Shown: positions 13,178 to 34,217 of the stretch, piece after piece
How the letters are laid out: the number at the start of each line of letters is the position of its first letter
How positions within the stretch are numbered: the first letter of the stretch is position 1
IMG/VR virus record: IMGVR_UViG_3300035208_002606
DNA from: a virus
Taxonomy: Duplodnaviria; Heunggongvirae; Uroviricota; Caudoviricetes
DNA length: 64,000 nt
Direction: 5' to 3' (one strand)
The notes under the pieces: generated by a model
Told to the model about the DNA's origin: nothing
What the model saw: the letters and a program-made list of their open reading frames with translations, nothing else
Databases searched by the model: none
Translations under genes and position numbers: made by a program

Positions 13178-13241
13178 TAGTGTAGGTAATCCGAAAAGTG
13201 GTGGCTTTTCAGAGGGGTAATTACTCCTTGTCCCTACACTA
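13178..13241 (-). ncRNA. structured leader upstream of homing endonuclease (copy 1)
   Basis: TAGTGTAGG/CCTACACTA closing stem enclosing two hairpins; paralogous to the 23378 and 34154 copies. Confidence 0.6.
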
Positions 13242-14660
13242 TTATTTAGTGTTTTTGTTATTTTTATCTTTACAGTACGGGACCAATTTTCCAAAAATGC
13301 ACTTTAAGAAATTAGGAATCCCAAAAAGAAAGTCCTTAATGTTTAAATAAAACCAACAGGAACATTTTTGCTCAGGCTCTTCAGGACAAGTGTTCCCCGT
13401 TTCGACCCACTTATTTTCCACACAAGTGTGCGTGACAATTTCCAACCCATTCCAACAGGTCATTTTTTTAACTTCCCCAATCGAACACTCTGGCGGTGAT
13501 GGGTAAACAGGGTCAGGCGTTCCGTAGTTCTCAGGATATTTGCCGTAACGATTCTTGTATGCGTCCGCTAACCCACGAATACTTTCCAACCAAGCATCAG
13601 GGGCAGTATTAGAGGGTAGACTTTCTAGAGAGGTCTTGCCGTCAACGCCGCCACACTTGGACAGGATATATTTTGCCGTGTTGTATGTTTGCTGATAATC
13701 CCCTCGTCTCCAAGTTCCATCGGGTTCACAATTCTTTGCGCTGTCCCCCTTGCTTTGTCCGTCATCACTTGCAAGGAACCAACGGGTTCTTGCATCGCCC
13801 CACATTTGTATGCATTTTTCTTCGTCATCGGAATCTTCAGGATAAATGCCGATATTATGGACGGTGCAGAGGATTAAATCTTGCGCCTGAGGAAGAGTCT
13901 CACGATATTTCTTTCCTGTCCTGCCGTCAATCATGTTCGACAAATAGCGACAAGCCTGAACAATCAAGTCCCTGTCTGTATCAACTTCCCATTTATCCCC
14001 AACAAATTCACCCACGGGTAATGCCCCCCAACAAATATTTCGTTCGGGACAGCCGCTCTGAATCAGGAAGTCTGCAAGTTTAGCGGCCCATGCTCCGCAA
14101 TCTTGAGGGGAGTATCCTTTTATTTGTGAGAACTCGTTGCAAATTTCGTACTCCATTGTATTTCCGTAACGACTATAAACTTTTTGTGCTGTTCTTCGGG
14201 CGTACTCAAAGGACACAAAATAGTTGGCAAAGCCTTGCACGTTGTTCTGCCACGGGGCCATAAGGGGGTTGCGATTGGAGCCAGGAGCAGTATGATATTG
14301 GCAGTTGTCGAATAAGGAATAAACGATTTTGATGTTATTTTTTCCCGCCAAATATACCACCTTATCCAACTCCACAAAATAGGCCTCGTTAAACTTATCC
14401 AAGTTCCATTTCTGTTTTACGGAATCCCAAAGATAAGGGCTGAACATCTTGTCCGCACTCTTTACCCATTTTGTTTCATAAGGGAAGATGCGGCAACGGT
14501 TCGCACCATATTTTCTTGCAGGGTGGATAAAGGCCTTGAATTGGTCTTCGTCTAATTTCATATCCCCCATACAACCGCCATCCCACCCCTCTTTATCGGG
14601 CATCCATCCTGTTGCGAAAATTCCCAACCAACTTACATATAAATTTGCTTTGTCTGCCAT
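13242..14660 (-). CDS. GH5-like (clan GH-A) glycoside hydrolase with Cys-rich C-terminal tail
   Basis: RIFPY, VYSLFD and YEICNE acid/base motif; start reassigned to MADK at 14660. Confidence 0.65.
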   Translation of the reverse strand: MADKANLYVSWLGIFATGWMPDKEGWDGGCMGDMKLDEDQFKAFIHPARKYGANRCRIFPYETKWVKSADKMFSPYLWDSVKQKWNLDKFNEAYFVELDKVVYLAGKNNIKIVYSLFDNCQYHTAPGSNRNPLMAPWQNNVQGFANYFVSFEYARRTAQKVYSRYGNTMEYEICNEFSQIKGYSPQDCGAWAAKLADFLIQSGCPERNICWGALPVGEFVGDKWEVDTDRDLIVQACRYLSNMIDGRTGKKYRETLPQAQDLILCTVHNIGIYPEDSDDEEKCIQMWGDARTRWFLASDDGQSKGDSAKNCEPDGTWRRGDYQQTYNTAKYILSKCGGVDGKTSLESLPSNTAPDAWLESIRGLADAYKNRYGKYPENYGTPDPVYPSPPECSIGEVKKMTCWNGLEIVTHTCVENKWVETGNTCPEEPEQKCSCWFYLNIKDFLFGIPNFLKCIFGKLVPYCKDKNNKNTK

Positions 14661-14664
14661 GTTA

Positions 14665-16014
14665 TTATTTTTCTTTACAATACGGCTCCAATTTTCCAAA
14701 AAGGCATTTGATAAAGTTAGGAACCCCAAAGAGAAAGTCTTTAATGTTCAAGTAGTGGAAGCAAGAACATTTTTGGTCGGGGGGTTCAGGTTGTTCAGGA
14801 CAGGTGTTACCCGTCTCAACCCATTTATTTTCCACACATGTATGCGTTATAATCTCAGACCCATCCCAACAAATAGATTTCTTCACTTCTCCTGTCTGAC
14901 ATTCAGCAATATATGGGAACTTACCGTAATTCTCAGGCCATACCCCATATTTTTCAAAATAAGCCTTACTAATTGCTTCCATTGTCGGAACCCAAACATC
15001 AGGATTCATGTTGGAGGGTAAACGCTCAATAACCCATTTGTTTATTTTGTTGGCATCATTTTTCAGAATGAGTTTTGCCACATTATACCATTGCTCCGGA
15101 GAAGGCCTACGATATTTCCCATTTGGTTTGATATCATTATCACTTGCACCGTTCGCAACCCCATCATCACTTAAAAATCCCTTGCCTGTATGACTACCAC
15201 CCCACCAATTCAATGCCCATTCTCCGTGATAGGAAGCCGGAAATATTTCTCCATCTTTGACTTCATTATATACCCCCACATTATGCATTGAGCGGTATGA
15301 TTGTATTTTTCCTGGGCGAAATTTCACGGTGGATAAAATAATGGTTTGTAAACTGTTATTTCTGTCCTCTTCCCATACTCCATTTTCATATGTCGCTGCT
15401 GATGAAGCACCCCAACATATTTCTTCTTCTATAACGCCTTTGGAAAGTAAACGGTCAAAAATTTCTACATTCCATTCTGCTGCTGCTTTAATGGGAAGAT
15501 TGCGTTTTACCCCCTCATTAATAATTTCGTAAAAAACCTTTCGTCCCAACACAGAAAATACCTTATCTGTCCATTTCAAAGCATAAGGCAGAGAATCATA
15601 GTAATCATCAAACCCTTGAACATTGTTTCCCCAAGGTGATACTTCTGTTGACCCATGATGGAATTGAGCATTATCAAATAGGCTGTACCAAATCTTGAGA
15701 TTGTACTTTGCGGCGACCGCGACCATCTGTGATAAAATCTCAAAATATTTGTCGTTATACTTGTTAAGATTCCACTTGCCATTTTCAAGAATGTAAGGAG
15801 ACCATAATTTCTCAATTGGAACGCCTCCCCCTTCTTGAGACCAAGGGGAATAAGGTAAAATACGAATACCATTTGCCCCCGCATTTGCCGATTTCTGACA
15901 CCAATTTTCCCACTTGTCAAAGTCAAATTCGGTGTAATCATTTTTAAGACAGCCCTGTACTGTGGGGCTGAATACTACCAACCAACTGTTTAAAAGATAT
16001 TGTTTGTCTGCCAT
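14665..16014 (-). CDS. GH5-like glycoside hydrolase, tandem paralogue
   Basis: RILPY, WYSLFD and YEIINE; same Cys-rich tail. Confidence 0.65.
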   Translation of the reverse strand: MADKQYLLNSWLVVFSPTVQGCLKNDYTEFDFDKWENWCQKSANAGANGIRILPYSPWSQEGGGVPIEKLWSPYILENGKWNLNKYNDKYFEILSQMVAVAAKYNLKIWYSLFDNAQFHHGSTEVSPWGNNVQGFDDYYDSLPYALKWTDKVFSVLGRKVFYEIINEGVKRNLPIKAAAEWNVEIFDRLLSKGVIEEEICWGASSAATYENGVWEEDRNNSLQTIILSTVKFRPGKIQSYRSMHNVGVYNEVKDGEIFPASYHGEWALNWWGGSHTGKGFLSDDGVANGASDNDIKPNGKYRRPSPEQWYNVAKLILKNDANKINKWVIERLPSNMNPDVWVPTMEAISKAYFEKYGVWPENYGKFPYIAECQTGEVKKSICWDGSEIITHTCVENKWVETGNTCPEQPEPPDQKCSCFHYLNIKDFLFGVPNFIKCLFGKLEPYCKEK

Positions 16015-16030
16015 GTTATTTTCTCCTATC

Positions 16031-16076
16031 TTTCTTATTTTCTTATTTTCTTATTTTCTTATTTTCTTATTTTTTT
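16031..16076 (-). repeat. (AATAAGAAA)x~5 tract directly before the SD of the GH5-like gene
   Basis: TTTTCTTAT tandem copies on the + strand. Confidence 0.8.
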
Positions 16077-16323
16077 ATGGTTCAACAGGTGGTTCAACAG
16101 GTGGTTCAACAGGCGGTTCAGGAAGTGTCAACCCCAACAACGAGATAACACTATCCATCGTTTCAGGGTCATCCTTCAACTTGTCAAGAATCAACACCAT
16201 CCCCTCTTGAAAGTTGCCTGTCGCCAAACTTCGTTGTTTGTTCCATTCCCTACCCAACTGTTTGAGATGCTTTATCAGTTTAGGTTCAACCTCTTCCCAA
16301 GTATCCCCACCCCAAATTTCCAT
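16075..16323 (-). CDS. small protein ending in (PEPPV)-type repeats
   Basis: 12-bp repeat GGTTCAACAGGT x3 at 16078-16115. Confidence 0.55.
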   Translation of the reverse strand: MEIWGGDTWEEVEPKLIKHLKQLGREWNKQRSLATGNFQEGMVLILDKLKDDPETMDSVISLLGLTLPEPPVEPPVEPPVEP

Positions 16324-16385
16324 GCAAATCCCTTCTTCTGCTTTGCCGTAAAATCTCCTGTTCCTATTGCCATGTTTTATTCCTC

Positions 16386-17723
16386 CTATTCATAAACCAC
16401 AATACATTTTGCGCCGCCGGCCGTAACAATCGTCAACCCTGTTCCGAACGGAATATTCAACGGGAATGCTCCCAATACCTTTGAAGCGTCTATCGCCCCA
16501 ATCAGAGGAACTGCCGCAGAAGTGTTGTCGTAAATCGTGATGGTTCCCGCATTCTCTACGTTGTTAATGGATTGCAAAACCCCTGCTCCATATTTACAAA
16601 TCGTTGTCGTATCCGTGGAGATGTATTTGTAGATTGCCTCTGTCGTAATATTTCCTAATCTGACGATGGTTGCAAATCTAACTTCGAATGAGTTGTCAGT
16701 TGTATTTCCGTTGGAGTTGATATTTTCCATCGTGATAGGGAGATTGAGAGTATTGGTGAGACTTGTTGTTGCTGATGAGAGTGTGTGGAGCAGGACGTTG
16801 TTGACGAAAAACTTCACATTGAACTCTGAAATATCTATCGTAAGCCGAACAAGTGTAGTACTCATTACAACACTTGCTCCCAAATTGCCGTTGAAACTAC
16901 CCGAAGCAACTGTCGTGTCTGCGCCGCCTTTTCTTGCCCCTACTTCGAATGCTGTTCCGTTCATTTGAAAATAAAATCCCTCGTTTGCATTGTACGGGCC
17001 GATTCTGCGAATATTATCCGCTTCGGGGTCTGTCATCAATCTTGCAATTGCACGGAACTGATTAACACTTCCAGGAACTTTACGAGAGGTGCGAACAGTT
17101 ACATATTTGGCTGTGGAATCGGCAGTCACTCCTGTTGCCAAGACGATTTCTCCTGCTAAGGTAACACTTCCCGACCCTGTTACCGTTTCCGTCCAAAAGT
17201 TCGTATCCTTGGTCGTGCCTGAAAAAGCAGTCCCGATTAGTCGCACGGGGCTGACTGTTTTCAAACCACCAATTGCATCCACTTCAACCCTGTTCCCAGT
17301 TTCTTCGTCTACAATCCCGCCGCTCGTTTTCAGGCGTTCGTAGGAGTTGAGGGCGCGAGGCAAAGGGTCGGCAATCGGACACAGGACTGCGTTGAGACGA
17401 AAATAAGTCGTATCCGTTGTGCCTGTCAATACCACCCTGATGCGCCAATAGTTAGTGATGGCTTGGACGGTTCCTCCGTCAGCACCCTTGGAGTAATAAT
17501 AGGCGAAAGAATCGGAGATGTCCCAATTGGTATCATCGTCCGACTGCTCGATGTAGACGGTTGCGTTTTGGTCGGTCTTCAGGTTCCATTGCAATGCCGC
17601 AACCCCCAAAGTGGATGTTCCTGTTCCCGTGAAGGTGTAACTGTTTCCTGAAGTAAGATTGGTAGTGGAACTGTTGTTCGCACCAACCTCTGCTTGTTGT
17701 TTTATGTGGCTAAAGTAACTCAT
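16386..17723 (-). CDS. putative virion structural protein (beta-rich, lectin-like)
   Basis: Thr/Gly-rich 445 aa; C-terminal TITIYDNT...FGTGLTIVT motif typical of phage virion proteins. Confidence 0.55.
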   Translation of the reverse strand: MSYFSHIKQQAEVGANNSSTTNLTSGNSYTFTGTGTSTLGVAALQWNLKTDQNATVYIEQSDDDTNWDISDSFAYYYSKGADGGTVQAITNYWRIRVVLTGTTDTTYFRLNAVLCPIADPLPRALNSYERLKTSGGIVDEETGNRVEVDAIGGLKTVSPVRLIGTAFSGTTKDTNFWTETVTGSGSVTLAGEIVLATGVTADSTAKYVTVRTSRKVPGSVNQFRAIARLMTDPEADNIRRIGPYNANEGFYFQMNGTAFEVGARKGGADTTVASGSFNGNLGASVVMSTTLVRLTIDISEFNVKFFVNNVLLHTLSSATTSLTNTLNLPITMENINSNGNTTDNSFEVRFATIVRLGNITTEAIYKYISTDTTTICKYGAGVLQSINNVENAGTITIYDNTSAAVPLIGAIDASKVLGAFPLNIPFGTGLTIVTAGGAKCIVVYE

Positions 17724-17815
17724 GCTTTATCTCCTATATTATTATCCATTGATTCGGCGCCGAACATTGCACCGTCAAGTTTTCCCATTGATTTACACTT
17801 TGGGTTGCATTGCCG

Positions 17816-20314: not shown

Positions 20315-20316
20315 GT

Positions 20317-20670: not shown

Positions 20671-20672
20671 TA

Positions 20673-20709
20673 TTTCTAATCTCCTATATGTATTTATGGA
20701 GATTAGAAA
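20673..20709 (-). promoter_or_regulatory. 12-bp hairpin occluding the SD, with a late promoter box in the loop
   Basis: TTTCTAATCTCC-ATAAATACATATA-GGAGATTAGAAA immediately before the ATG at 20670. Confidence 0.7.
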
Positions 20710-20794
20710 ATGTATAAACCAATCCTATCAAATTGGTTTATGGGATTGATAACCCAATCAGAGTCGGAATACCGATGGTCTGATTGGGAGCAGA

Positions 20795-20977: not shown

Positions 20978-20988
20978 ATTTGTCTCCT

Positions 20989-21334: not shown

Positions 21335-21335
21335 T

Positions 21336-22388
21336 TTATTCTCCTCCTTTATTTATTAGTTCTTCTACTTTCTCGACAACGGTTTCGGGGGATACGAAAG
21401 CGTCTGCATTAAATTCTGCCGCTTCCCAAAGTTCGAATTGCTTTTCTCTTAAATAACTACGATTTTTCAAAAGATTTACATTAGCCTCGTGTCCAAAGAT
21501 GGACGGGTCAGACTGACTCCAAATAACTATTCCTCTTTTTTTAAATTGCAACAAGGCCCAGTGATGAAAGAAGTTGTCTATACTTATCCACGCCTTGCAG
21601 TTCTTAATGTCTTCCCCCAATTCCCACAAATCTTTATCCCAGATGTGGGCATCTGCTGTTTTCAGTTTAAGTTCCGCGCCTTGGCCGGCTTGCCAGACCG
21701 TATACCCTTTTTCCTTCAGAAGTTTTATCAACTTGGTCCAATATTCCTTCGAAGGGTTTTTGGCATTAAATCCCCCTGACCGCAGCGGTTTCGCCCAACA
21801 ACTCATCAGTATTGTATTCTCGTCCATTCTTAACTCCGTTATTTTTTGCCAAATATTTTCATCGCCTACAACTGCCCTGTACTTAAATAATTTATCCAAC
21901 GCCGCCTTAACCGTACCCCACAACAGGTCGTGGCCTGCCATAATCCCTCTGTCTTTTAACTTCGGCAGGCAAAGTTTAACATCGTTCGTGACGGCTTCTG
22001 TCGTATGCTCGCCGTCAATAAAAATGAAGTCGAAGAACTTATCAGGGATAGAGTATTCTTCCCACTTCAAATTTCTCGTGTCTGCAACGATAACTTTAAC
22101 ATTGTCGGTGATTTCAAAATCGGCTATTGCCTTGCGGAATATTCCTTCGATGTCCAATTCCTGCGCTTCCTTGTGTGCGCCATCTGCTTCGCTTTCCGCT
22201 CCTTTGAAGGTGTCCACGACATAAGCCGTAATATTTTTTTTCTTAATGATGTCGGCAACGGAACAAATGGAGCGGCCTCGCCAACAACCGATTTCGAGAG
22301 TGGTTGCCCCGTTGGGAAGAGATTCAAAAGTCCTTCGATAAAAAGCGATATCGTTGTCATACCACCATCCCACAGGTAACTCAGCCAT
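21336..22388 (-). CDS. class I SAM methyltransferase fused to a GT9-like C-terminal half
   Basis: LEIGCWRGRS, FIFIDGEH and MAGHD; then KNPSKEYW...WISIDNFFHH...IVIWSQSDP. Confidence 0.75.
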   Translation of the reverse strand: MAELPVGWWYDNDIAFYRRTFESLPNGATTLEIGCWRGRSICSVADIIKKKNITAYVVDTFKGAESEADGAHKEAQELDIEGIFRKAIADFEITDNVKVIVADTRNLKWEEYSIPDKFFDFIFIDGEHTTEAVTNDVKLCLPKLKDRGIMAGHDLLWGTVKAALDKLFKYRAVVGDENIWQKITELRMDENTILMSCWAKPLRSGGFNAKNPSKEYWTKLIKLLKEKGYTVWQAGQGAELKLKTADAHIWDKDLWELGEDIKNCKAWISIDNFFHHWALLQFKKRGIVIWSQSDPSIFGHEANVNLLKNRSYLREKQFELWEAAEFNADAFVSPETVVEKVEELINKGGE

Positions 22389-22632
22389 TCTTACCCTCCA
22401 ATTCCCGCTCAAGAGTGTTCAAAATTATAGATAAAGTTTTTTGGTCAGCAATTTCAGAAAAATCAAAATAACCAGATAACCCTTTTATTTCTTTAAATTT
22501 AACTGTAACTATTTCATTTACTCGAATAAAAATAAAATGTTGAGATTCAAGTCGTTGTATAGTTGAATCTGAAACTAATTTTTTAGCCAAACTTTTAAAT
22601 TCTTTTTTAAATATTTTTTTTTGTTTCATCAT
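22381..22632 (-). CDS. hypothetical protein
   Basis: 83-aa ORF coupled to the downstream gene. Confidence 0.55.
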   Translation of the reverse strand: MMKQKKIFKKEFKSLAKKLVSDSTIQRLESQHFIFIRVNEIVTVKFKEIKGLSGYFDFSEIADQKTLSIILNTLERELEGKNG

Positions 22633-23350
22633 TAAACTCCTTATTTACTCGAACTTGGTTTTTTTTTATTTTGTAAAAATAACCATTTGAAATTCCAAAT
22701 TTGGTATAAATTTCTTTACTGCTTAATTTTCCCTTTTCTATTAATTTTTTAATCAATAAAATATCATTATCTGTTAGTTTGTGATTCCAACTATTATTTC
22801 CGATATATTTACCTTTTAATCTTTTACTTATTTCTTCACCAAATCCTTCTCTTTTTGGTTTTCTCATATGCTGTTTGCCCTCTTCGCTTCTGGGCTTTCT
22901 CATTTTTATTAAAGATTCTTCAGTATGGCGTTTTCCGTAAAATGGATTATTTATTCCATTAGATTTTTCTCTTTTTTTCTGTTTTGTTTCTTCTGTTTGT
23001 AATCTACCAATTGCTCTTTTTCTTATTTTTTGTTTTGTTATTTCTGAATGGTGTTTATTTTCATGCCCACCTGTTTCTAAATTATACCCATTCGGAGCCA
23101 ATGTATTCAACTCTTTTATTAAAAACTGTTCTGTCCAATCCAAGTCTTCTTCAACACAAGAAAAAGAAATCCATTTAAAGTTTTTGATACCATATTTTTT
23201 AATCGCTCTCGTTAAAATACAAATTTGTTTCTTTTTTCCGCACTTGTGTCCCGCTATTCGTTCTTTTAATTTTCTCGTTGTTTGCCCCACATATCTCATT
23301 CCATTTAAGAGATTAATACCAATATAAATCGTTCCAAGTTTTTGATTCAT
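22607..23350 (-). CDS. GIY-YIG homing endonuclease with NUMOD3-like repeats
   Basis: GTIYIGINLLNGMRYVGQT, APNGYN and NPFYGKRHTEE; SD AAGGAG. Confidence 0.85.
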   Translation of the reverse strand: MNQKLGTIYIGINLLNGMRYVGQTTRKLKERIAGHKCGKKKQICILTRAIKKYGIKNFKWISFSCVEEDLDWTEQFLIKELNTLAPNGYNLETGGHENKHHSEITKQKIRKRAIGRLQTEETKQKKREKSNGINNPFYGKRHTEESLIKMRKPRSEEGKQHMRKPKREGFGEEISKRLKGKYIGNNSWNHKLTDNDILLIKKLIEKGKLSSKEIYTKFGISNGYFYKIKKNQVRVNKEFNDETKKNI

Positions 23351-23377
23351 CTTCAACTCCTTATCCAAGTCAGATTT

Positions 23378-23443
23378 AATAGTGAAGTAATCCGAAATGG
23401 GATAAGCATTTCGAAAAGGGAATGACCCCTGTCCTACACTATT
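23378..23443 (-). ncRNA. structured leader upstream of homing endonuclease (copy 2)
   Basis: AATAGTG/CACTATT stem with hairpins AGGG/CCCT and TTCGAAATG/CATTTCGGA. Confidence 0.6.
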
Positions 23444-23457
23444 ATTTATTGTTTTCA

Positions 23458-26400
23458 TTAAAATTTTTCTTGTAAAAATAACTCTTCGTAGGCGGTTTTT
23501 AAATGAATTTTTCTTCCCAAATCCGACTGCTTCCACAAATATCTATAGACGTTGTGTACATCGGCCATTTTTTCTCCGATAATATCTTTAACTTGCCAAG
23601 GATGTAATGTTTGAACAGAAGGAAAATCTTTAAAGAGGAGAGAATAATAAGTCCCAACTATAACCTTTCCATATTTTTTAATGAGTTCGGGAAGTATTTC
23701 TTTAAAACAAATAGTATCCCCAATACCCGCATCAATTTGGAATATTTTTCCATCGGGTTTAATAGACCAACTTTGTAATTTACGTTTGAAAATTTCTTCA
23801 TCATGTGTCCAAAGTTCGGGATTGGGATTAGACCGTATCCCGCCGTTGGGGTTTCTAAAATGCCAAATCTGGGCTGAAGTTGTAACAAGAAGTTTCCAAC
23901 CTCTGCGGAAATATTCGTGTGTAAATATACTTTCTTCTCTATGGGCAACATCACTCAGGGAGAGACAAAAATTAATATCTTCTACTTTGCGATATAAAAA
24001 AGAAGAATAAAGATGTTCGACTTCAAACACTTGGCCTTCTTTCTGTTTCATCCATTGTGTATTCTCTTTTGTATATATTTCTGAAATTTTATTATTATTA
24101 ACATAACCCTCTGGAGCCAATTGCGATTGTTTAGGGTCTAATACTAAACAACCGACAGCACCCACACCATCGGTCATTTGTTCCATTAATTTTTCCAAAA
24201 CATTAGGTTCTAAATATTCATCATCATCGACCCGAAACACAAACTCTGTCTTGGCTTTGTCGAGGACAATCTGATGGCTGAAGTGCTGACCCTTATGTTG
24301 CCCAAAGATGACTTCCCATTCAATACCCTTTTTCGACAACATCGAAAAGAGGTATTGATACATCGGGTCATCTCGCAAGTCTGTCATCTTACCGTCTTCC
24401 TTGGGGTCTGAATCGTCCACGATGATAAGTTTTCTGATGGGGTAGGTCTGCATCATTACGGACAGCAATGTTGTCGGGAGCGTGGAGAAGTAGCGGTTCT
24501 TGGTGGGGATGCCGACAGTTACTTCGTATTTTTTCTCGTTCTCCTTTTTGCGCTCATATCCTAATGTTCGTAGTCTTGGGTCGGCGGGTCTATCCTGAAA
24601 AATTTCCACAAAGCCCTGAGCGGTCAGAAATTTTCTCAACCCTTCTATCAACCCGAACTGCCCTTCAGTTTTATGGACATTCTCGTGCATTTCAATACGG
24701 ATGGAATCAATCTTCGACAGAGCATGAAACGATGCCCCATAAAATAAATCGTACTCAGCACCTTCGCAATCCACTTTCAGAAAGATGGGTTTATCGTTTC
24801 CTACTTGTTCCACCAAATAATCAAGGTTAACAGTTCTTACTATATTTGTAGAGTTGTCTGTTGCGGGTTGAGAATATACTCTTCCATCTGCCTTGTCGAA
24901 CTGTGGGAGATGCACCATTTCAACTTCTTCCCCTTTTCTTAATCCAACAGCCATCGGCAAAAGAAAAATATTTTCCTCGCCTTTTGTATTTTCAGATAGA
25001 GTGAGAAGGGTTTCAGTATTTGGCTCAACAGCAATAATTTTTGCGGCTCCGTATTCCTCAGCCAACAAGGTAAATATTCCCGTATTGGCTCCGACATCAA
25101 TGACATTTTTCCCCCCAATATCTTTTTGCGATACATGATAGCAATTATTATCCACGATTTCCTTGAAAATTAAGGGGTTTTGTGTTTTTAAATTCTGTCT
25201 ATTGACTAACGGCATTGGGTTTAAGACATTGATGGTCTTCTTTTCTAATTCCATGAATTGTTCTTTTGTCATTTTTGCATCTCTAGCGTAATGAAATGCC
25301 CAACCATTCTTCAAATCGGTTTCGCTAAGTCTTGCCGCTTCCCTTTTGTTTCTTTCTATGAAATTATCAAAATCTATATATTTAAAATGTAAGAGGTATA
25401 AAGACTCGTCTGATTTTTTTATCGTTCCTGTAGGATTTGCCTGATGGCAACCTACTTGGTAATTTACGTCTACCTTTGCGGGGTTGAAAACCGAAAGTTT
25501 ACTCAACCATTGCGGGTCGTGATATCCTCTTCTCACTATGTCATAAATTTGACCTGAGTATCCATAATCAAACTTTTCGGAAACCATCTGAAACCCCTTA
25601 ATAGTAGGGATTGTGATTCCATTGCGCTTAAATTCTTCTAACTTTTCTCTCAATTTTGGATGATGAATGAACTCATCCATATCCACTACAATAACCCAGT
25701 CATAATCATATCGATATTTTTTCCATGCCTCATTCCTGAAATCAGTCAAGTGTTGATTGTTCATTTTGTCTTCGGGAACAGAAATAATTTCAACCTTATT
25801 TGAAGCCTTTAGTATTTCAAGGGTTTTATCCGTAGAGCCGCCGTCATAAATTAAAATCTTATCAGCAATGGTTTCATAGTGTCGTAGAAAAAATGGGGCA
25901 ATAAGTTCTTCGTTACGGCAGACTGCCATAACCAATACACTTAATTCCTGCCCGTGCGAACCAAGCACTTCTGGTTCAAATACAGTAGGTAATTCGTCAA
26001 AACATGCTTTGGCAAACCTAAAGTCATTTCCAATTTCCTCTGTTTCTTTCCACACTAGCGCATGTTTTTTGGCAATATCTAAGCGAACCATCATGTTCAA
26101 AGTATCAATTTGAAAAAATTCAGGCTTGCCTTGATGTCCGACTTCGGGAATATCTCGACCCGTTTCGGAATGATGAATTTTACACCATGCTCCTCCAACA
26201 TCCTTTAGGAATGTGGCCTGCCAAAGATGAAGCAACCATTCGGGTTTTACGGTATTATCAGAATCTAAAAACACCACCCATTCCTTATTACTTGATTCCA
26301 ACTTATTCAAAATTTCAATGCGTTGCCCATCTCCGTAATGATTATCGGGCGGGTCAATAAAAGTATACTCAATCTCAGGAGCATTCTGAATTTTTGACCA

Positions 26401-27300
26401 CTCCGTTTTCTTTTGTGCAACAATCCACATCACCGTTTCATCATGTCCATCCGCACAGACATGAACTTTAAATTTTCGATACTGTTGCTTGTCCAAATCC
26501 TCTAAAACCTTTTTCAACCGTTCGTACCTTTTGTAAACGGGAACTACAATATGAATTTTTTCCCAATATTTTTCAGCCAACAAATTTCTATTTTTCGCAG
26601 TTTGATTATCCCAATCTTCCAAAGAAAATAATTCTCCTGAATGCATCGTGTTCTCTGCGTAATGGCTGATGGGAAAATTCCCAACAGACTTATGCAGTTT
26701 TCTGTCAAAGCCATTAATATAGGAATATATATTGTATCCCAACTTGACGGCCTTGATAGCGATATCCGTATCATCACCGTAGCCAATTCCCCAGATGGAA
26801 TCAAGTCCGTCAATTTTGTTAAGTAAATCCATCTTTATCATTTCGCAGAATCCCAACGGAAAGTCAATGCCTGTAACGGGACAAGGCAGGGATTTTGCTC
26901 CGACTATTCCCATTTTGGGGTCTTTGCGAAACGGAGTCAAAAGAAGTTCAACCCAATCCTTAGAATGAATTACGGTGTCATCATTCAGGAAAATAACGTA
27001 ATCCTGTTTGACCTCCATATTTTTTTCAAGTTGTCGGATGTCCCTTAATCCTTGATTGATTGCCCCTACATACCCCAATGGTTCATTTTTCCAATCAAAA
27101 AAAATGGATAAGTTCTCCTCACTAAAAGATTCAATAAAATCCTGAAGCCTTTCGTCTTTTGCGCCGTTTACCATCAGAAAGAGAGTTATATCCCCCGACT
27201 TTAAATCGGTGTTGGCTACTATGCTTTCCACACAAGGTTTCAACGCTTTGTCAAAATTAATTGCACAAGTAGGGATGAGAATTGTGACTTTCTCGTTCAT
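23458..27300 (-). CDS. multidomain glycosyltransferase (several GT2/GT-A domains, FkbM-type methyltransferase, GT9-like N-half)
   Basis: Four GT-A-like segments with DxD-type motifs (LNDD, LDSD, VDMDE, VDDDE); VIDVGANTG...KVDCEGAE; C-terminal AGIGD. Confidence 0.85.
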   Translation of the reverse strand: MNEKVTILIPTCAINFDKALKPCVESIVANTDLKSGDITLFLMVNGAKDERLQDFIESFSEENLSIFFDWKNEPLGYVGAINQGLRDIRQLEKNMEVKQDYVIFLNDDTVIHSKDWVELLLTPFRKDPKMGIVGAKSLPCPVTGIDFPLGFCEMIKMDLLNKIDGLDSIWGIGYGDDTDIAIKAVKLGYNIYSYINGFDRKLHKSVGNFPISHYAENTMHSGELFSLEDWDNQTAKNRNLLAEKYWEKIHIVVPVYKRYERLKKVLEDLDKQQYRKFKVHVCADGHDETVMWIVAQKKTEWSKIQNAPEIEYTFIDPPDNHYGDGQRIEILNKLESSNKEWVVFLDSDNTVKPEWLLHLWQATFLKDVGGAWCKIHHSETGRDIPEVGHQGKPEFFQIDTLNMMVRLDIAKKHALVWKETEEIGNDFRFAKACFDELPTVFEPEVLGSHGQELSVLVMAVCRNEELIAPFFLRHYETIADKILIYDGGSTDKTLEILKASNKVEIISVPEDKMNNQHLTDFRNEAWKKYRYDYDWVIVVDMDEFIHHPKLREKLEEFKRNGITIPTIKGFQMVSEKFDYGYSGQIYDIVRRGYHDPQWLSKLSVFNPAKVDVNYQVGCHQANPTGTIKKSDESLYLLHFKYIDFDNFIERNKREAARLSETDLKNGWAFHYARDAKMTKEQFMELEKKTINVLNPMPLVNRQNLKTQNPLIFKEIVDNNCYHVSQKDIGGKNVIDVGANTGIFTLLAEEYGAAKIIAVEPNTETLLTLSENTKGEENIFLLPMAVGLRKGEEVEMVHLPQFDKADGRVYSQPATDNSTNIVRTVNLDYLVEQVGNDKPIFLKVDCEGAEYDLFYGASFHALSKIDSIRIEMHENVHKTEGQFGLIEGLRKFLTAQGFVEIFQDRPADPRLRTLGYERKKENEKKYEVTVGIPTKNRYFSTLPTTLLSVMMQTYPIRKLIIVDDSDPKEDGKMTDLRDDPMYQYLFSMLSKKGIEWEVIFGQHKGQHFSHQIVLDKAKTEFVFRVDDDEYLEPNVLEKLMEQMTDGVGAVGCLVLDPKQSQLAPEGYVNNNKISEIYTKENTQWMKQKEGQVFEVEHLYSSFLYRKVEDINFCLSLSDVAHREESIFTHEYFRRGWKLLVTTSAQIWHFRNPNGGIRSNPNPELWTHDEEIFKRKLQSWSIKPDGKIFQIDAGIGDTICFKEILPELIKKYGKVIVGTYYSLLFKDFPSVQTLHPWQVKDIIGEKMADVHNVYRYLWKQSDLGRKIHLKTAYEELFLQEKF

Positions 27301-27336
27301 TTTATTTGAACTCCTTTTTTAAATTCTTTTCTGTCT

Positions 27337-27759: not shown

Positions 27760-27764
27760 TTTTC

Positions 27765-28043
27765 TCACCGCATATATTTAGGCTTAAACCCGTTTTTGGG
27801 TTTATTTTGAGTTGGTTGCTGAAGTTCCGTGCCGCCATTTTTCTTAAAACAAGAAGTAATCTCCGATGCAAGCAACCAATTCTTGCAAATATGACTTGTT
27901 TTTTTAATATCCCCGTAACGGGAAATATAGGTGGTGACGGTAAAGAAGTCCGCTTTGGGACAGGCGGCTCTTACTGTTCTATCAGGGGAGTGTTCGCAAG
28001 TCAGGCATGTGCCTTCGTAATATTGAACGCTTGCCGCCCCCAT
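27765..28043 (-). CDS. small Cys-rich (CxxC) protein
   Basis: Start reassigned to MGAASV with SD GAGGAG; CLTC...C...CKNW. Confidence 0.55.
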   Translation of the reverse strand: MGAASVQYYEGTCLTCEHSPDRTVRAACPKADFFTVTTYISRYGDIKKTSHICKNWLLASEITSCFKKNGGTELQQPTQNKPKNGFKPKYMR

Positions 28044-28068
28044 TTCTTTCTCCTCTTTCAATAATTTT

Positions 28069-28905: not shown

Positions 28906-28907
28906 TT

Positions 28908-29657
28908 TTATGTTTTAACAATAAGATTTTCTGCTTCTCGTTCCATTTCTTCGGGAGATTCATAGCCTTGTTTTATGAGTCCTTCAATTTCTTTAATATT
29001 TTTATATCCCCCTGCGAGCCATATGGCTGCTTTTTCTGGGCGGTGGAGAACCCGTTCCCATTTAATTGCAACTTCAGGTTTAAATCTAAGACTCTTCCAA
29101 GCAAAAGCAATACTGGGATATTTAAAATTATTTTCTAACCAATTGCCAATTTCCCTAACATGAAACCCCTTTTCCAACCACTTTGGAACATCTTGAAGAG
29201 ATATTAATTCCTTGTCCACCAAAGGCTTGATGAATTTTTCCAAATGCGCTGGTTCCACCTTAAACTCGTCTGCAAGTCTCACCAAAGTATTAGGGTCTTG
29301 AACCCCAATTTTGGCCCATTGAGAATATGAATCAGGGGTAACTCCTTTTTCCTTAAATGCACTTACAACTTCAGGAGTAGCCTTGACCCTGTGCCACGAA
29401 AGTAATTCTTTATAATCTGTAATTCCTGCGTTCGTATAATCGGTAACATCATAAGGATTTAACCCTTCTTTGTGATAAATCGCGGCTACAGAGGGTTCAA
29501 TACTCGGAACCATGTCGCGCCAATAGGCGGCATTTTCTGCCGCTTCTCCCTCTTGTCCAAAATTCGTGCGCCATCTTTCTCTGTCGATATCGTCATCAAA
29601 CATCTCTGCCCACATATCATCATTGGGGTTTGTTGGTTTCCATGCTTCATCAGCCAT
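28908..29657 (-). CDS. hypothetical protein with Trp-spaced helical repeats
   Basis: Recurrent W...G repeats; late box at 29708-29715. Confidence 0.65.
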   Translation of the reverse strand: MADEAWKPTNPNDDMWAEMFDDDIDRERWRTNFGQEGEAAENAAYWRDMVPSIEPSVAAIYHKEGLNPYDVTDYTNAGITDYKELLSWHRVKATPEVVSAFKEKGVTPDSYSQWAKIGVQDPNTLVRLADEFKVEPAHLEKFIKPLVDKELISLQDVPKWLEKGFHVREIGNWLENNFKYPSIAFAWKSLRFKPEVAIKWERVLHRPEKAAIWLAGGYKNIKEIEGLIKQGYESPEEMEREAENLIVKT

Positions 29658-29727
29658 TTTTATTTCTCCTTTTTAAATAGTTTCGTAGAGCCACCTCGCT
29701 CTACTGCTATTTATTAAAAATCGAAAA

Positions 29728-30012
29728 TTACGAAAATTCAAATTGTAGGTATTTCCAAAGGGCTTCGATTTTGGCTCTGTCGGAAGTCCAATTATTCTCA
29801 ATCAGGAAATCGCCAACGTAATAAAATTGTTCCTCGGATATTTGTTCTAATTGACTAGAGACATCCCCGTCTTTGTCTATCTTGCGAACTCTACGCAGTT
29901 CTTCTACTAACTGCCTGATTTTTTGCTGTTCTTCAGGCTCAAATATCTTTAGTAATGTCTGCTTCTCTTCGGGAGTTAGCCTTGCGGACCTTTGCCTTAA
30001 TTTCTTTCTCAT
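29728..30012 (-). CDS. hypothetical protein (start uncertain; overlaps bS21)
   Basis: 94-aa ORF from the track. Confidence 0.45.
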   Translation of the reverse strand: MRKKLRQRSARLTPEEKQTLLKIFEPEEQQKIRQLVEELRRVRKIDKDGDVSSQLEQISEEQFYYVGDFLIENNWTSDRAKIEALWKYLQFEFS

Positions 30013-30172
30013 AAGCCCTCCTTTTCTCAGAGGGCTTCATGTAGGAACCTCGTTCTCTACAGGTTGCGACAATCCGTTCTTCGATTACTTTCCTTTTGAA
30101 CCTTCTGAGCATGTCGTCCAATTCTTCAACTTTCCAAGGGGAATTAGGATTTCTCCTGAAAATCTGTGCCAT
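29939..30172 (-). CDS. rpsU: phage-encoded ribosomal protein bS21
   Basis: LRRFKRKV...I...RER..YMKPSEKRR is the bS21 signature; SD AAGGAG. Confidence 0.85.
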   Translation of the reverse strand: MAQIFRRNPNSPWKVEELDDMLRRFKRKVIEERIVATCRERGSYMKPSEKRRAYEKEIKAKVRKANSRREADITKDI

Positions 30173-30187
30173 TCTTATTTCTCCTTA

Positions 30188-30526
30188 TTACACTTTCTTT
30201 TTTCTAGAAAAAAACATCCAAGAGTTTTTCAGTTTGAGTGGTTTAAATATCATACTGATTTCATATGGTATTTCACGATAAACCAAGATTATTATTGCCT
30301 TGGTCACATTGGAATATTCGGGATGAGCAAAAATAGAAATTTTGACATCATCACAACCATTCGCCAAAAACATATTCTTCGTTAGGATTTCGGCATGTTC
30401 GTGAGTCGCTCTTGTGTTTGGTTCAAAGAATATCATTTCTCTCATGGCCCCGATAATGCCATTCAAAATCTTTTCAAACTCTTTCTTGTCTTTACGCTTT
30501 TCGTTCCATCTTTTAATAAAATTCAT
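30188..30526 (-). CDS. hypothetical protein
   Basis: 112 aa; SD AGGAGG. Confidence 0.6.
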   Translation of the reverse strand: MNFIKRWNEKRKDKKEFEKILNGIIGAMREMIFFEPNTRATHEHAEILTKNMFLANGCDDVKISIFAHPEYSNVTKAIIILVYREIPYEISMIFKPLKLKNSWMFFSRKKKV

Positions 30527-30536
30527 TTTTATCCTC

Positions 30537-30743
30537 CTATGATATTATTGTTCCGTGCCATTTACACTTGGGGCAATCCACAGATATTTGTGGTGGGTAA
30601 CTTGTGTAAACTAGACTAGTATCCTTCAATAATTCTTCTCCACATTGGGGGCAAGCCAGACCAGATTTTTGCGGGTGTTCTAGTTGTTGGTATAGTTTAC
30701 GCATTTCTTCGTTATACTCTTCGACTGTTTTTAATTTAGACAT
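30537..30743 (-). CDS. zinc-ribbon protein
   Basis: CPQCG...CPKC. Confidence 0.65.
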   Translation of the reverse strand: MSKLKTVEEYNEEMRKLYQQLEHPQKSGLACPQCGEELLKDTSLVYTSYPPQISVDCPKCKWHGTIIS

Positions 30744-31048
30744 TTTTTATCCTCCATATCAATCACCTTTATCGGTGATTTGGTTTCTTCTCTTTCGTTC
30801 CAAGACTTGATGGCATTTTTGATTTCTTTTCTCGACCATGCCTCTACATTGTTACATTTCTTGTTACTGCAATAAATCTCGACAATATGCAAGGAAACAT
30901 CTTTATCGGTTCGTGGGTCATGAAATTTATGCCATGCTCCATATTCACATGCGTGTGGTTTTGCTCCGCATCTTTTGCAGGGTAGGAGTTTCTTCATCAT
31001 ATCGAGCATATATTTTTTTCTACCCTGTTTTTCTACAATTTTTCCCAT
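30731..31048 (-). CDS. Lar-like zinc-ribbon protein
   Basis: CKRCG...CSNKKC...AIKSWN. Confidence 0.5.
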   Translation of the reverse strand: MGKIVEKQGRKKYMLDMMKKLLPCKRCGAKPHACEYGAWHKFHDPRTDKDVSLHIVEIYCSNKKCNNVEAWSRKEIKNAIKSWNEREETKSPIKVIDMEDKKCLN

Positions 31049-31506
31049 GCTTTGTCCTCTTCGGGCGTATCCCAATCCTTCTTCAAGCAGGGTTCGCTAG
31101 CCTTCATTATCATTTTCGTTTCCTTCTCGTTTTTCAAATCGTCCTTGTGTATAATGCGGTACTCGTGTTCAAACCAACCTTTCCTTTGTTTTTGCAATCT
31201 TAAATTTTGATTCATCACGACTTCGGCGGCTTCTTTTTCGTAATACTTGCCTTCTCTCACCCAATCATTATTTTTTCCCAATGCCCAATACCAAGGCCAG
31301 TATCGTCTCCCGCCTAATTTTTTCCCCGATTCTTCTTCTCTCTTTTTATCTTCGGCTAACATCTTTTCCCACGATTCTTTCGTGTAGCGATATTGAAGAT
31401 GCCATACCTTTTCGCCTTTGTGCTTTGCCTTCGGCTTCGGAACTTCGGGAGCGGGAAGCCTTTTCTTCTTCTTGTATTCTTCTCGTTCTGCGGCTCGTTG
31501 GGTCAT
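31033..31506 (-). CDS. hypothetical protein
   Basis: 157 aa; SD GGAGG. Confidence 0.6.
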   Translation of the reverse strand: MTQRAAEREEYKKKKRLPAPEVPKPKAKHKGEKVWHLQYRYTKESWEKMLAEDKKREEESGKKLGGRRYWPWYWALGKNNDWVREGKYYEKEAAEVVMNQNLRLQKQRKGWFEHEYRIIHKDDLKNEKETKMIMKASEPCLKKDWDTPEEDKAWEKL

Positions 31507-31517
31507 TATTCAACCTC

Positions 31518-32090
31518 CTATGGTTTAATATTTTCCACGAGTTCGTAAATCATTGCCGTTTGTTCGGGGGTAAACATCCACCTTTTGTTGACATTCTTGT
31601 TCGCCCAAAATTCAACAGGGTTGTGCCGCTCCTTGCTGACGGCGAACCAATCAGCCACCATCTCTGCAACCGACAAAGTATCCATCTTCGTTGCGTCTAT
31701 CGTTTGCGAAGCCTCATCCCTTGCGTCAGGATTTACCAAGTTGGTCGTAACATCCGACCAATATTCAGGATGGTGCTTGCTGTTCTTGATATGGTGCGCC
31801 GTTGCGTTGTTCATCGGTTCCTTCATTTCTTCGGGAGGTTCGTAGGGAACTCCTTCGGCTTTGCACTTATATGTCCAAGTCGTGAAGATGTAAGGGGTTC
31901 GTTCGGGTTCCCTGAATTTAAGAGAGTCATGCCATTTCGCCTGAAATACTAACCCTTTGAAACGCTTAGGGTCGTAACTTTCAATTTTATTGCAGTAGCG
32001 TTGCACATTCTTGATGTGATTGGTGGTTCGCTTGACAAACCAATCTTCCATCTCCTTAGTGTATTTTGGCTCAATTACATTGAATATCAT
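31518..32090 (-). CDS. HD-like (DUF5662-type) protein
   Basis: WHDSLK...HHIKNSKHHPEYW...EMVADW. Confidence 0.65.
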   Translation of the reverse strand: MIFNVIEPKYTKEMEDWFVKRTTNHIKNVQRYCNKIESYDPKRFKGLVFQAKWHDSLKFREPERTPYIFTTWTYKCKAEGVPYEPPEEMKEPMNNATAHHIKNSKHHPEYWSDVTTNLVNPDARDEASQTIDATKMDTLSVAEMVADWFAVSKERHNPVEFWANKNVNKRWMFTPEQTAMIYELVENIKP

Positions 32091-32130
32091 TAATCACTCA
32101 TCACTTATATTATACCATAGAGTGTTATGT

Positions 32131-32967
32131 TTATACCCAATACCTCACGAACTGATGAAAGAGTTCCTTTACCTCATTCTTCTTCAATTCGTCATCCTTC
32201 AGTTTATCACGAAAAATTGCCGACCACTTGTAATACAGCCACTTCACCAAAAGTTTATACACGATGTTCCACGGCAGGAAGTTGCGGCTCTTGTACTTGC
32301 GAACCGTCTCAAGGCTCTCACCCTCAAGACTCTTGCTGAACTCGTCCACCCTCTTCTTGTGAATGGCATCCAAGGTGTTGTTGTAATCGTCCAACTCCAA
32401 TTGCAGTTGGTTCAGCCTGTTCTCGATTTTTTCCCCGCCGCCCTGATAGTCTCCTGTCAAGTCCTGTACCATTTTGGCAACATCGTCCAACTGTGCGTCC
32501 AACCTCTTTGCAATTCTTTGTGCCAACGCCGTAGGATTTTTCAGGACTTCCTCAACTTGGTCAACATCGATGGGTTCCTTCACCCATTTATCCTGAAGCA
32601 AGTCGTAGATGCCGTCTGCCAAGGTCATCATGTCTCCGACATTATCGGTGCGGAAATAAAAATTTATTGGAAAGGGGCCGAAGAAATGGCGCTCATTTAC
32701 CACCCGTGTCAGTTTACGGTAGGAATCCAAAGTCTTCTCGTCCACATCACAAAACACGGTACAGTCAATGTCGGATTCGTGGCTCCAGAACTTCCCCGTG
32801 ATGGAACCTACAATGGTCAATTCCCTGTAAACCACTTTCAACTCCCTTAGTATGTCCACAATCTTGATGCGTATGAGGGGGTTGATTTTTTTGTCCTTCC
32901 AAACATAGGGATTTTCCTGAGGTTGGGCGGGGTCAACGATGGATTCTCTAATTTTTTTTAGTTGCAT
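32131..32967 (-). CDS. Pol-beta superfamily nucleotidyltransferase
   Basis: GSI...SDID catalytic motif. Confidence 0.7.
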   Translation of the reverse strand: MQLKKIRESIVDPAQPQENPYVWKDKKINPLIRIKIVDILRELKVVYRELTIVGSITGKFWSHESDIDCTVFCDVDEKTLDSYRKLTRVVNERHFFGPFPINFYFRTDNVGDMMTLADGIYDLLQDKWVKEPIDVDQVEEVLKNPTALAQRIAKRLDAQLDDVAKMVQDLTGDYQGGGEKIENRLNQLQLELDDYNNTLDAIHKKRVDEFSKSLEGESLETVRKYKSRNFLPWNIVYKLLVKWLYYKWSAIFRDKLKDDELKKNEVKELFHQFVRYWV

Positions 32968-33577
32968 TTAAAATATTATTTAATTGGGCCTCAAATTGAC
33001 TGAGATTCATTTGTCCCGAAGGCATTCTGTGTAATTGGCCAAGAACTTCGAGAAATTGTTGTTGTTGTTGTGGAGTTAAATCTACTTGTGTTTTTCTTCT
33101 AGTTAATAATCGTATAAATTCCCTAGCCTCGTCGTCGTTTAAGTTTTGTTTATTGTATAATTTACTAAACCATTCCGACATTTTATCAATTGTTTTATCG
33201 TCCCACCCCATTTTTCTTCCGTAAGAATCAAATTCTTTATCTCCTGTAGATTCGGGTAATGTGCCGATAAATTTTTGTATATCTAAAATCATGTTATTTA
33301 AAAAAGTATCAAAATTGTTAGATTGAAGTTGTTTAGAAAAGTAATCATACCCTTTTTCTTTCATATAAGCGACAACTAGATTGTTCAATGATTGTGCTAT
33401 TTGTTCTTTAGAAAGATTTGTGGATTTTACTAAAGAATCATCTATTGTATTGGGGTCTATATTTTCACCGTTTATATCTTTACCTATGGTTGACAATGCG
33501 CTTATAAACTCATTTGGTTTTATTAATTCTCCTTTTGTTGTTTTGAAACTAAAAAATTCTTTTAATATTTTTTTCAT
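32948..33577 (-). CDS. hypothetical protein
   Basis: Long ORF; start MKKILKE. Confidence 0.6.
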   Translation of the reverse strand: MKKILKEFFSFKTTKGELIKPNEFISALSTIGKDINGENIDPNTIDDSLVKSTNLSKEQIAQSLNNLVVAYMKEKGYDYFSKQLQSNNFDTFLNNMILDIQKFIGTLPESTGDKEFDSYGRKMGWDDKTIDKMSEWFSKLYNKQNLNDDEAREFIRLLTRRKTQVDLTPQQQQQFLEVLGQLHRMPSGQMNLSQFEAQLNNILNATKKN

Positions 33578-33578
33578 T

Positions 33579-34106
33579 TTATATAACCTCATGAATGTCA
33601 TTAATAGTTTTGGCATTTGGGTTAGCGGCTAATATTCGTTTTGCTTCACTTTGTGCCATCGCATCTGCAACTTTTTGTTTTTTAAAATCTGCTATCAAAT
33701 CTGCCATTAATTTTGCCTCTTCTTCTGGAGTTCTTCCTGTTGATGTTTCTTCTCCCTCTTCAGGCATTGAAGTAGGAGGCGTGGAAGTAAAAAGTGTTCT
33801 AATATATATGCCTGCTGATTTTTCAAAATTTTTATCTTTCTTTAGTATTTCAGCGAGTAATAAATCGTTTTTATTTAAACCTTTGCTTTTTGGACTTTTT
33901 GAAATAGCATTCCAAAAACTCACAATATTTCCTGCCATTCCCGAAACAGTTGTCAAAAAATTGGTATTTATTCCAAATGCAGAGCCTAAACTAGCAAGAC
34001 TTTGTAAAGCATTTTGAATATTTCTAACACTATCTTGAGTTTTTTGTGATATTTGTTTAAGTTCTTCGAGGTTCTGTTTGATTTTTATCACTCTGAATTT
34101 TGTCAT
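33579..34106 (-). CDS. hypothetical protein
   Basis: SD GGAG; late box at 34122-34129. Confidence 0.6.
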   Translation of the reverse strand: MTKFRVIKIKQNLEELKQISQKTQDSVRNIQNALQSLASLGSAFGINTNFLTTVSGMAGNIVSFWNAISKSPKSKGLNKNDLLLAEILKKDKNFEKSAGIYIRTLFTSTPPTSMPEEGEETSTGRTPEEEAKLMADLIADFKKQKVADAMAQSEAKRILAANPNAKTINDIHEVI

Positions 34107-34121
34107 ATTGTTCTCCACCCT

Positions 34122-34152
34122 TATTTATTGATATTAAAAAAAACAATAAATA
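34122..34152. promoter_or_regulatory. back-to-back T4-like late promoter boxes (AATAAATA)
   Basis: - strand 34122-34129 and + strand 34145-34152, at the strand switch. Confidence 0.65.
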
Positions 34153-34153
34153 A

Positions 34154-34217
34154 TAGTGTAGGGACAGGGGATGCAACCCTTTCTGAAAAGCCATACCTTT
34201 TTAGATTACCTACAATA
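34154..34217 (+). ncRNA. structured leader upstream of homing endonuclease (copy 3)
   Basis: TAGTGTAGG/CCTACAATA stem with hairpins AGGG/CCCT and CTGAAAAG/CTTTTTAG. Confidence 0.6.

Follow-up and report, generated by a model that had tools for sequence, protein, structure and literature searches.

A candidate translational brake on phage homing endonucleases: a leader RNA with a three-way junction and a predicted kissing loop over the ribosome-binding site

Introduction

Why should homing endonuclease genes of different families in one phage genome be preceded by the same short folded stretch? The question is posed by a 64,000-nucleotide (nt) piece of DNA from an uncultured T4-like myovirus (IMG/VR record IMGVR_UViG_3300035208_002606; hereafter the window, meaning this whole stretch), in whose structural region three copies of a leader, here c1, c2 and c3, stand between the hexamer TAAATA and a nuclease open reading frame (ORF). 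A preliminary description of the window had taken them for a portable unit of a late promoter and a structured cis-regulatory RNA, a proposal borne out by the several nuclease families behind the leader, an empty site in relatives, the late-type TAAATA and the lack of an Rfam match. Our answer is that the leader is probably a cis-acting translational brake on the homing endonuclease, lying within the mobile cassette and operating by kissing-loop occlusion of the Shine-Dalgarno sequence. Since the loop of one of its helices (P3) complements the loop of a further hairpin (P4) that carries the Shine-Dalgarno sequence, the RNA is predicted to combine a three-way junction with a kissing loop formed within the same molecule, and this contact would bury the ribosome-binding site.

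Three leader copies in the window

The copies occupy 13178-13241 (-), 23378-23443 (-) and 34154-34217 (+), and inspection of the sequence confirmed that each directly follows TAAATA. They align over ~70 nt with a mean column identity of 83%, and all three contain the shared pattern first described for them, AATAGTGTAGG(G)ACA(A/G)GG...CCC..GATTAC. A three-way junction of helices P1, P2 and P3 was predicted separately for c1, c2 and c3, at -22.0, -20.5 and -18.8 kcal/mol; relative to dinucleotide shuffles the z scores are -4.5, -3.9 and -2.8, and the three folds together beat 598 of 600 such shuffles. The claim that all three fold alike thus stands as regards the junction, but the closing stem P1 is imperfect in two of them, with a U.U mismatch and one base pair (bp) fewer in c2 and a G.A mismatch in c3. 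A covariance model built from relatives recovers exactly these three copies in the window (58-90 bits); the next match, at 18.5 bits, is the reverse strand of c1. The features are as follows:

13243..13248 (-): c1 TAAATA, probable late-promoter box, directly 5' of the leader and overlapped by the stop codon of an upstream ORF of 495 amino acids (aa)
13178..13241 (-): c1 predicted three-way junction; P1 UAGUGUAGG/CCUACACUA, P2 GGAGU/ACCC, P3 CUGAAAAG/CUUUUCGG, junction strands GACA and AUUA
13199..13204 (-): c1 P3 loop CCACCA, the putative anti-Shine-Dalgarno address
13156..13171 (-): c1 predicted P4 hairpin AACUU-UGGUGG-AGGUU, whose loop UGGUGG (13161-13166) would pair with the P3 loop; the Shine-Dalgarno GGAGG spans the P4 loop and 3' arm, and the ATG is at 13150-13152
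12514..13152 (-): c1 HNH-like (His-Me finger motif) probable homing endonuclease ORF, 212 aa
23443..23448 (-): c2 TAAATA, probable late-promoter box
23378..23443 (-): c2 predicted three-way junction, with the shorter, U.U-mismatched P1; P3 UUCGAAAUG/CAUUUCGGA
23400..23406 (-): c2 P3 loop CUUAUCC
23355..23371 (-): c2 predicted P4 hairpin GACUU-GGAUAAG-GAGUU, whose loop GGAUAAG (23360-23366) would pair with the P3 loop; ATG at 23348-23350
22607..23350 (-): c2 GIY-YIG and NUMOD3 homing endonuclease ORF, 247 aa
34147..34152 (+): c3 TAAATA, probable late-promoter box
34154..34217 (+): c3 predicted three-way junction, with the G.A mismatch in outer P1
34191..34196 (+): c3 P3 loop CCAUAC
34223..34238 (+): c3 predicted P4 hairpin AACUU-GUAUGG-AGGUU, whose loop GUAUGG (34228-34233) would pair with the P3 loop; ATG at 34241-34243
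34241..34804 (+): c3 HNH-like probable homing endonuclease ORF, 187 aa, paralogue of the c1 protein
34129..34800 (+), approximate bounds: whole inserted c3 cassette (promoter, leader and ORF), missing from the collinear relatives G003 and G009

Covariation across relatives

Leaders were gathered from IMG/VR by pattern scans followed by covariance-model searches, which yielded 52 distinct examples; the first pattern scan of viral contigs returned mainly chance matches, and these were filtered by genomic context and the covariance model. The model, whose construction had been suggested in the preliminary description, brought in relatives with covarying P1 and P3. The leader as a whole is a folded RNA of ~95 bases. 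Covariation was tested on an alignment of 48 leaders with 22 pairs, against 500 shuffles and controls in which the pairing partner was slid along the alignment. P1, P2 and P3 have 92% paired cells in this alignment and both-sided changes at 15 of the 22 pairs (128 cells), whereas none of the 500 shuffles reaches any of the five measures used and sliding the partner by 1-3 columns lowers pairing to 40-50%. The covarying pairs concentrate in P3 (8 of 9) and P1 (5 of 9), while P2 is a G-rich/C-rich stem kept in several registers. The compensatory changes initially reported for the third hairpin are therefore strong across the relatives, although within the window alone just one P3 pair is changed on both sides. 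The single-stranded junction letters GACA (G12 A13 C14 A15) and AUUA are nearly invariant, so that the linkers GAC and ATTA noted in the window prove conserved among the relatives too.

The fold is best assigned to the mRNA strand: folding energy favours this strand in 37 of 49 leaders, by a mean of 3.1 kcal/mol, and in the P3 helices of a 15-leader set G-U cells outnumber A-C cells by 12 to 1. Self-complementary P2 loops were considered as a dimerisation signal and dropped, being present in just 5 of 30 distinct P2 hairpins.

Comparison with Rfam, by which the preliminary description had proposed to judge novelty, gave no known family: Rfam 15 returned no match at the gathering threshold across the 64 kb, and at E <= 10 (24 kb; 131-nt query) there were weak matches alone, none plausible and all far below threshold. 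A tRNA/tmRNA scan found none, and no description of such a leader turned up in full-text literature searches. The leaders are thus an uncatalogued RNA family, in which the proposed principle of control is one known from T4 and the architecture is new.

A private kissing loop over each Shine-Dalgarno sequence

The strongest feature of the collection lies in the relation between the P3 loop and the sequence downstream of the junction. In 49 of the 52 distinct leaders the entire P3 loop (6-8 nt) is perfectly Watson-Crick complementary to a stretch that lies 5-11 nt past the junction and ends 7-11 nt ahead of the start codon; these complementary leaders use 37 different P3-loop sequences. A loop matches its own downstream region over a mean of 6.67 nt, as against 3.95 +/- 0.13 nt for permuted combinations of loop and downstream region (at most 4.41 nt in any of 2000 permutations), and the loop-loop duplex has a mean energy of -8.1 kcal/mol. 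The pairs in the window are CCACCA/UGGUGG (c1), CUUAUCC/GGAUAAG (c2) and CCAUAC/GUAUGG (c3). Given the 37 complementary loop pairs, a P3-P4 tertiary contact is almost certain.

The partner stretch forms the loop of the short fourth hairpin P4, whose 3' arm holds the rest of the Shine-Dalgarno sequence. P4 arms pair with their own partner over a mean of 5.0 bp, versus 4.1 +/- 0.13 bp when permuted, and occur in several covarying types, including AACUU/AGGUU, UUGaCC/GGgCAA and AGUUC/GAACU. Both the kissing helix and P4 were judged by permutation scripts, as MAFFT does not register their short variable loops. The loop-loop helix takes up 1-5 nt of the GGAGG core (at least 2 in 39 of the 49 leaders) and the remainder falls mostly in the 3' arm of P4; the ribosome site would therefore be buried twice, by the kissing loop and by P4. 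All 49 leaders are predicted to form a cis RNA structure in which the endonuclease gene's Shine-Dalgarno sequence is base-paired. It is P4 and its pairing with P3 that turn what was described as some structured RNA into a putative ribosome-site-occluding leader. Loop complementarity running on into the P3 stem, as expected of an alternative, mutually exclusive hairpin, was not seen by eye in the listed sequences.

As to the distribution of the loops, all loop sequences are distinct within each genome (11 in the 89-kb fragment G002, 7 in the complete genome G003, 5 in the 169-kb fragment G001 and 3 in the window), and where two loops are identical they stand at corresponding sites in different genomes, e.g. 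GGAUAAG at the c2 site.

Genome setting and the late promoter

The window's tail sheath protein is a distant (~26% identity) relative of the T4-type gp18, and a megablast search of 12 kb against GenBank phages gave no match and hence no close relative. TAAATA occurs 10-40 nt upstream of many structural genes, while the early region uses promoters of the form TTGACA-N17-TATAAT; because of this partition TAAATA is most likely a T4-type late promoter, in agreement with the initial suggestion. The leaders share an extended box, TAAATA-R-N-AGT-R, with several structural genes. As this consensus runs into the leader, its first ~7 nt never vary.

Extended boxes of non-nuclease genes lie at 29701-29713 (-), 34802-34814 (+), 37339-37348 (+) and 43864-43876 (+), and two of these four have a small hairpin directly 3' of them. 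The TTGACA-N17-TATAAT promoters stand ahead of early-region genes at ~3075-3144, ~5022-5091 and ~9975-10044 (+); they suggest that the host uses an ordinary sigma-70 together with strong ribosome sites of the GGAGG type.

Nuclease families behind the leader

Each leader precedes an ORF, or a truncated remnant, of the GIY-YIG, HNH-like or DUF7487/Vsr-like family, which upholds the view that endonucleases of different families are served, and with the relatives adds one more family to it. The c2 protein matches GIY-YIG (PF01541, E 6.7e-7) and NUMOD3 (PF07460, E 6.5e-8), both past the cut-offs, as well as PHROG 314 'homing endonuclease' (E 2e-28). The c1 and c3 proteins are paralogues sharing the HNH-like motif HIDHI..P...NLQP..W..EN..K, which is invariant across 11 paralogues, and are probably HNH / His-Me finger nucleases. 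Sequence and profile searches with them gave no Pfam, NCBIfam or PDB match at threshold; the c3 protein matches PHROG 1035 'endonuclease VII' at E 3.5e-5, a Pfam HNH match at E 2e-3 occurs in one of 26 scanned downstream proteins (not assigned to a particular member), and a protein-atlas search with the HNH-like protein gave weak HNH leads only. The AlphaFold model of the nuclease part of the HNH-like protein, with a predicted local distance difference test (pLDDT) score of ~40-65, is too uncertain for a structure search. Of the original labels, two HNH and one GIY-YIG, the latter is thus secured by Pfam, while the HNH assignment of c1 and c3 derives from the motif and weak library matches.

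The third family, found in the relatives, is marked by a zinc ribbon, DUF7487 repeats with KYGVE motifs and, at the C-terminus, a DUF559/Vsr-like domain. Its genes behind the leader are:

L177:7116-8180
L192:2776-3963
L192:5546-6676
L144:6742-7704
L164:5558-6613
L048:7881-8849
L155:10529-11356

The window encodes a fourth homing endonuclease, GIY-YIG with NUMOD3, at 35059-35685 (+), right after the c3 cassette and without a leader. This gene has no obvious Shine-Dalgarno sequence, and the 254-nt stretch preceding it is conserved in relatives.

Mobility, empty sites and remnants

Several relatives carry the leader in many copies: eleven in the 89-kb fragment G002, seven in G003 (223 kb, with terminal repeats) and five in the 169-kb fragment G001. 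Among the 120 matches listed when representative genomes of bacteria and archaea were scanned with the pattern, there was no true copy. The c3 site offers the clearest view of mobility: G003 and G009 are collinear with the window there and lack the segment ~34129-34800. Because this empty site lacks exactly the promoter, the leader and the HNH-like ORF, the leader lies inside the inserted unit, and the c3 cassette can be described, as was proposed at the outset, as a portable module that travels with its endonuclease. Empty sites for c1 and c2 were also sought in the relatives and no clean one was found: the c2 site holds a nuclease gene or remnant, and at c1 synteny is lost. The idea that cassettes are bracketed by TAAATA holds for c3 and c1; overall the box lies near the stop codon in 16 of 42 nuclease ORFs versus 10 of 47 background ORFs, a weak difference, and the idea was not retained.

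In G003 the leaders L118, L123, L127, L135 and L137 are followed by nuclease remnants of 15-50 codons, with the loop-loop match, the Shine-Dalgarno sequence and the ATG intact. These could reflect recent decay, or the promoter and leader could have been co-opted for the next gene.

A proposed translational brake

The cassette would be a unit of TAAATA late promoter, leader and nuclease ORF, with the leader forming the 5' part of the nuclease mRNA. This RNA would fold into the three-way junction of P1, P2 and P3, followed by P4, and the P3 loop would pair base for base with the P4 loop, so that one part of the Shine-Dalgarno sequence lies in the loop-loop helix and the other in the 3' arm of P4. 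With the ribosome-binding site fully base-paired, translation of the nuclease would be held down. The near-invariant junction (GACA, AUUA) would serve as a scaffold pointing P3 towards P4. Any change of loop letters would be tolerated that leaves the two loops complementary, and this would give every copy its private pairing. Both the repression of translation by this pairing and the manner of its release are inferred from sequence.

For the release we favour the logic of T4 in a new form. A transcript starting ~6 nt past TAAATA would begin within the 5' strand of P1, and a start at column 7 of P1 would remove the outer 4-6 bp only, leaving the kissing loops and P4 in the RNA. Late transcripts would keep the inner 4-5 bp of P1 and read-through transcripts the full 9-11 bp; with the start site inside the 5' strand of P1, the former would hold the brake less tightly than the latter. 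In more than 90% of copies, G.U variants included, the otherwise unconstrained 3' strand of P1 has kept its complementarity to bases -4 to -1 of the promoter region, and in a nearest-neighbour model, which cannot score the loop-loop helix, an RNA begun at column 7 has its P1 probability reduced from 0.80 to 0.45. This retained complementarity and the modelled drop make a softened T4-like switch plausible; a brake that is constantly on but leaky is about as likely as a T4-like release.

Several points weigh against the brake as proposed. The late promoter stands upstream of the entire inhibitory contact, so that late RNA, unlike that of T4, keeps both kissing loops, and the suggested release depends on a model blind to the loop-loop helix. 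Coverage of the nuclease genes is incomplete: of the 14 such genes in G002, 11 have the leader, and the corresponding figures are 5 of 10 for G001 and 3 of 4 for the window. In G003 five of the seven leaders precede truncated nuclease remnants and their loop complementarity is still perfect, which fits recent decay but also a role independent of the nuclease. Finally, the near-invariant junction letters hint at a further, unexplained function, because a simple hairpin would suffice to hide a ribosome site.

Alternative explanations

That last point leads to the possibility that the junction is a sensor, be it a riboswitch or an operator for a phage or host protein, at which binding would tighten or loosen the P3-P4 kiss and so time translation of the nuclease. 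The leader has the generic layout of a translational riboswitch, with a conserved core (G12 A13 C14 A15 and A-U-U-A near-invariant), stems that covary freely and an expression platform that overlaps the ribosome site and would hide the Shine-Dalgarno sequence through a tertiary pairing. As the same core sits on three unrelated nucleases, any sensed factor must act in trans and be common to them. If true, this would be a design of constant sensor and variable address, in which one scaffold carries dozens of loop pairs that are orthogonal to one another. We nevertheless think it unlikely: no Rfam riboswitch matches, a pure scaffold would conserve its junction equally, and the conservation of the 5' strand of P1 comes in part from TAAATA-R-N-AGT-R, which non-nuclease genes also possess.

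The leader likewise recalls small ribozymes in its compact junction, its conserved unpaired letters and its tertiary pairing, and the AUUA strand is a plausible RNase E-type site; a self-cleavage or nuclease cut, e.g. in the AU-rich strand between P3 and P1, would then free the ribosome site from the anti-Shine-Dalgarno loop. No hammerhead, twister, twister-sister, pistol, hatchet or other Rfam match appeared at E <= 10 with the 131-nt query, and the junction strands GACA(A), 0-2 nt and UUA (4, 0-2 and 3 nt) are not those of a hammerhead core, in keeping with the mismatch to CUGAnGA/GAAA pointed out initially; we judge such processing decidedly improbable. Hardly better are the prospects of a protective role, in which the 5'-terminal stem and the buried GGAG shield the message either against 5'-end-dependent decay or against cleavage of its Shine-Dalgarno sequence by a RegB-like nuclease. 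P1 would indeed lie at or near the 5' end of the late transcript under T4-type spacing, and in T4-like phages RegB cuts GGAG in ribosome sites, but protection would need neither private, fully complementary loops nor a geometry fixed close to the start codon. The least credible proposal places the feature at the level of DNA, as a copied promoter, homing or recombination site or a relic whose fold is incidental, or, in a variant, as an antisense RNA or terminator of the opposite strand. The overlap of the first ~7 nt with the general promoter consensus and the insertion of cassettes beside late promoters speak for it; copying cannot, however, explain compensatory changes in three helices together with 37 complementary loop pairs in a pseudoknot arrangement, both the G-U pairs and the folding energy point to the mRNA strand, and TAAATA is weakly enriched near nuclease stop codons (the 16/42 against 10/47 given above).

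Comparison with known systems

The closest precedent for the proposed brake comes from T4-like phages, where ribosome-site-hiding hairpins are combined with late promoters in I-TevI, I-TevII, I-TevIII, segB and Aeh1 mobE (PMC2988022). Like these hairpins, the leader belongs to a homing endonuclease gene of a T4-like phage and would pair in cis with that gene's Shine-Dalgarno sequence; it adjoins a late promoter of the TATAAATA type, and the presumed purpose is to keep the nuclease low or late. The means differ: T4 uses a single stable local hairpin, in place of which we predict a three-way junction, a separate hairpin and a 6-7-bp loop-loop helix. The T4 late promoter lies inside the hairpin and late RNAs therefore lack its 5' arm, whereas here it lies upstream of the whole leader and only outer P1 could be lost. 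Furthermore, in contrast to the T4 hairpins, the leader is a conserved multi-copy module common to three nuclease families.

Two other classes of RNA share parts of the architecture. The SAM-II and preQ1-II/III riboswitches hide the Shine-Dalgarno sequence in a pseudoknot, and the purine riboswitch is a three-way junction with an L2-L3 loop contact. The leader resembles them in its conserved junction core, covarying stems, tertiary pairing at the ribosome site and size class (~60-100 nt), and differs in having no similarity to their Rfam models and in a kissing partner that lies outside the junction and varies in its letters between copies. Fully paired kissing loops are known from ColE1 RNA I/RNA II, R1 CopA/CopT and HIV TAR/TAR*, in which, as predicted here, all 6-7 loop nucleotides pair and specificity resides solely in the loop letters; those complexes, however, join two RNA molecules, whereas the leader would carry both loops on one strand, ~35 nt apart and held by the junction.

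Other features of the window

Several further loci were recorded. At 6266-9463 (+) there is a tandem array of ~10 small paralogous ORFs (78-105 aa) with overlapping starts and stops and the common ending ...GAATGGATTAAGC. A five-fold tandem repeat, (AAGAAAAT)x5, at ~16030-16070 (-) lies directly upstream of the ribosome site of a 449-aa gene (14665-16014). The structural module also includes, at 23458-27300 (-), a gene for a 1280-aa protein in which several family-2 glycosyltransferase domains are combined with an FkbM methyltransferase domain, after which another methyltransferase is encoded at 21336-22412.

Implications

The leaders form an uncatalogued RNA family ready for curation, and the covariation that defines it, with 37 loop pairs, is unusually clean. 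They also amount to a set of natural, orthogonal kissing-loop pairs on a constant scaffold, a possible parts list for engineered translational control, and their near-invariant junction raises the question whether something senses the brake. For the biology of the phages, the significance lies in the nature of the genes concerned. Homing endonucleases are selfish and potentially toxic, and detailed knowledge of how phages restrain them is confined to a few T4 genes, every one of which has a simple hairpin of its own; here one portable RNA module would exert this restraint on at least three unrelated nuclease families and would move with them.

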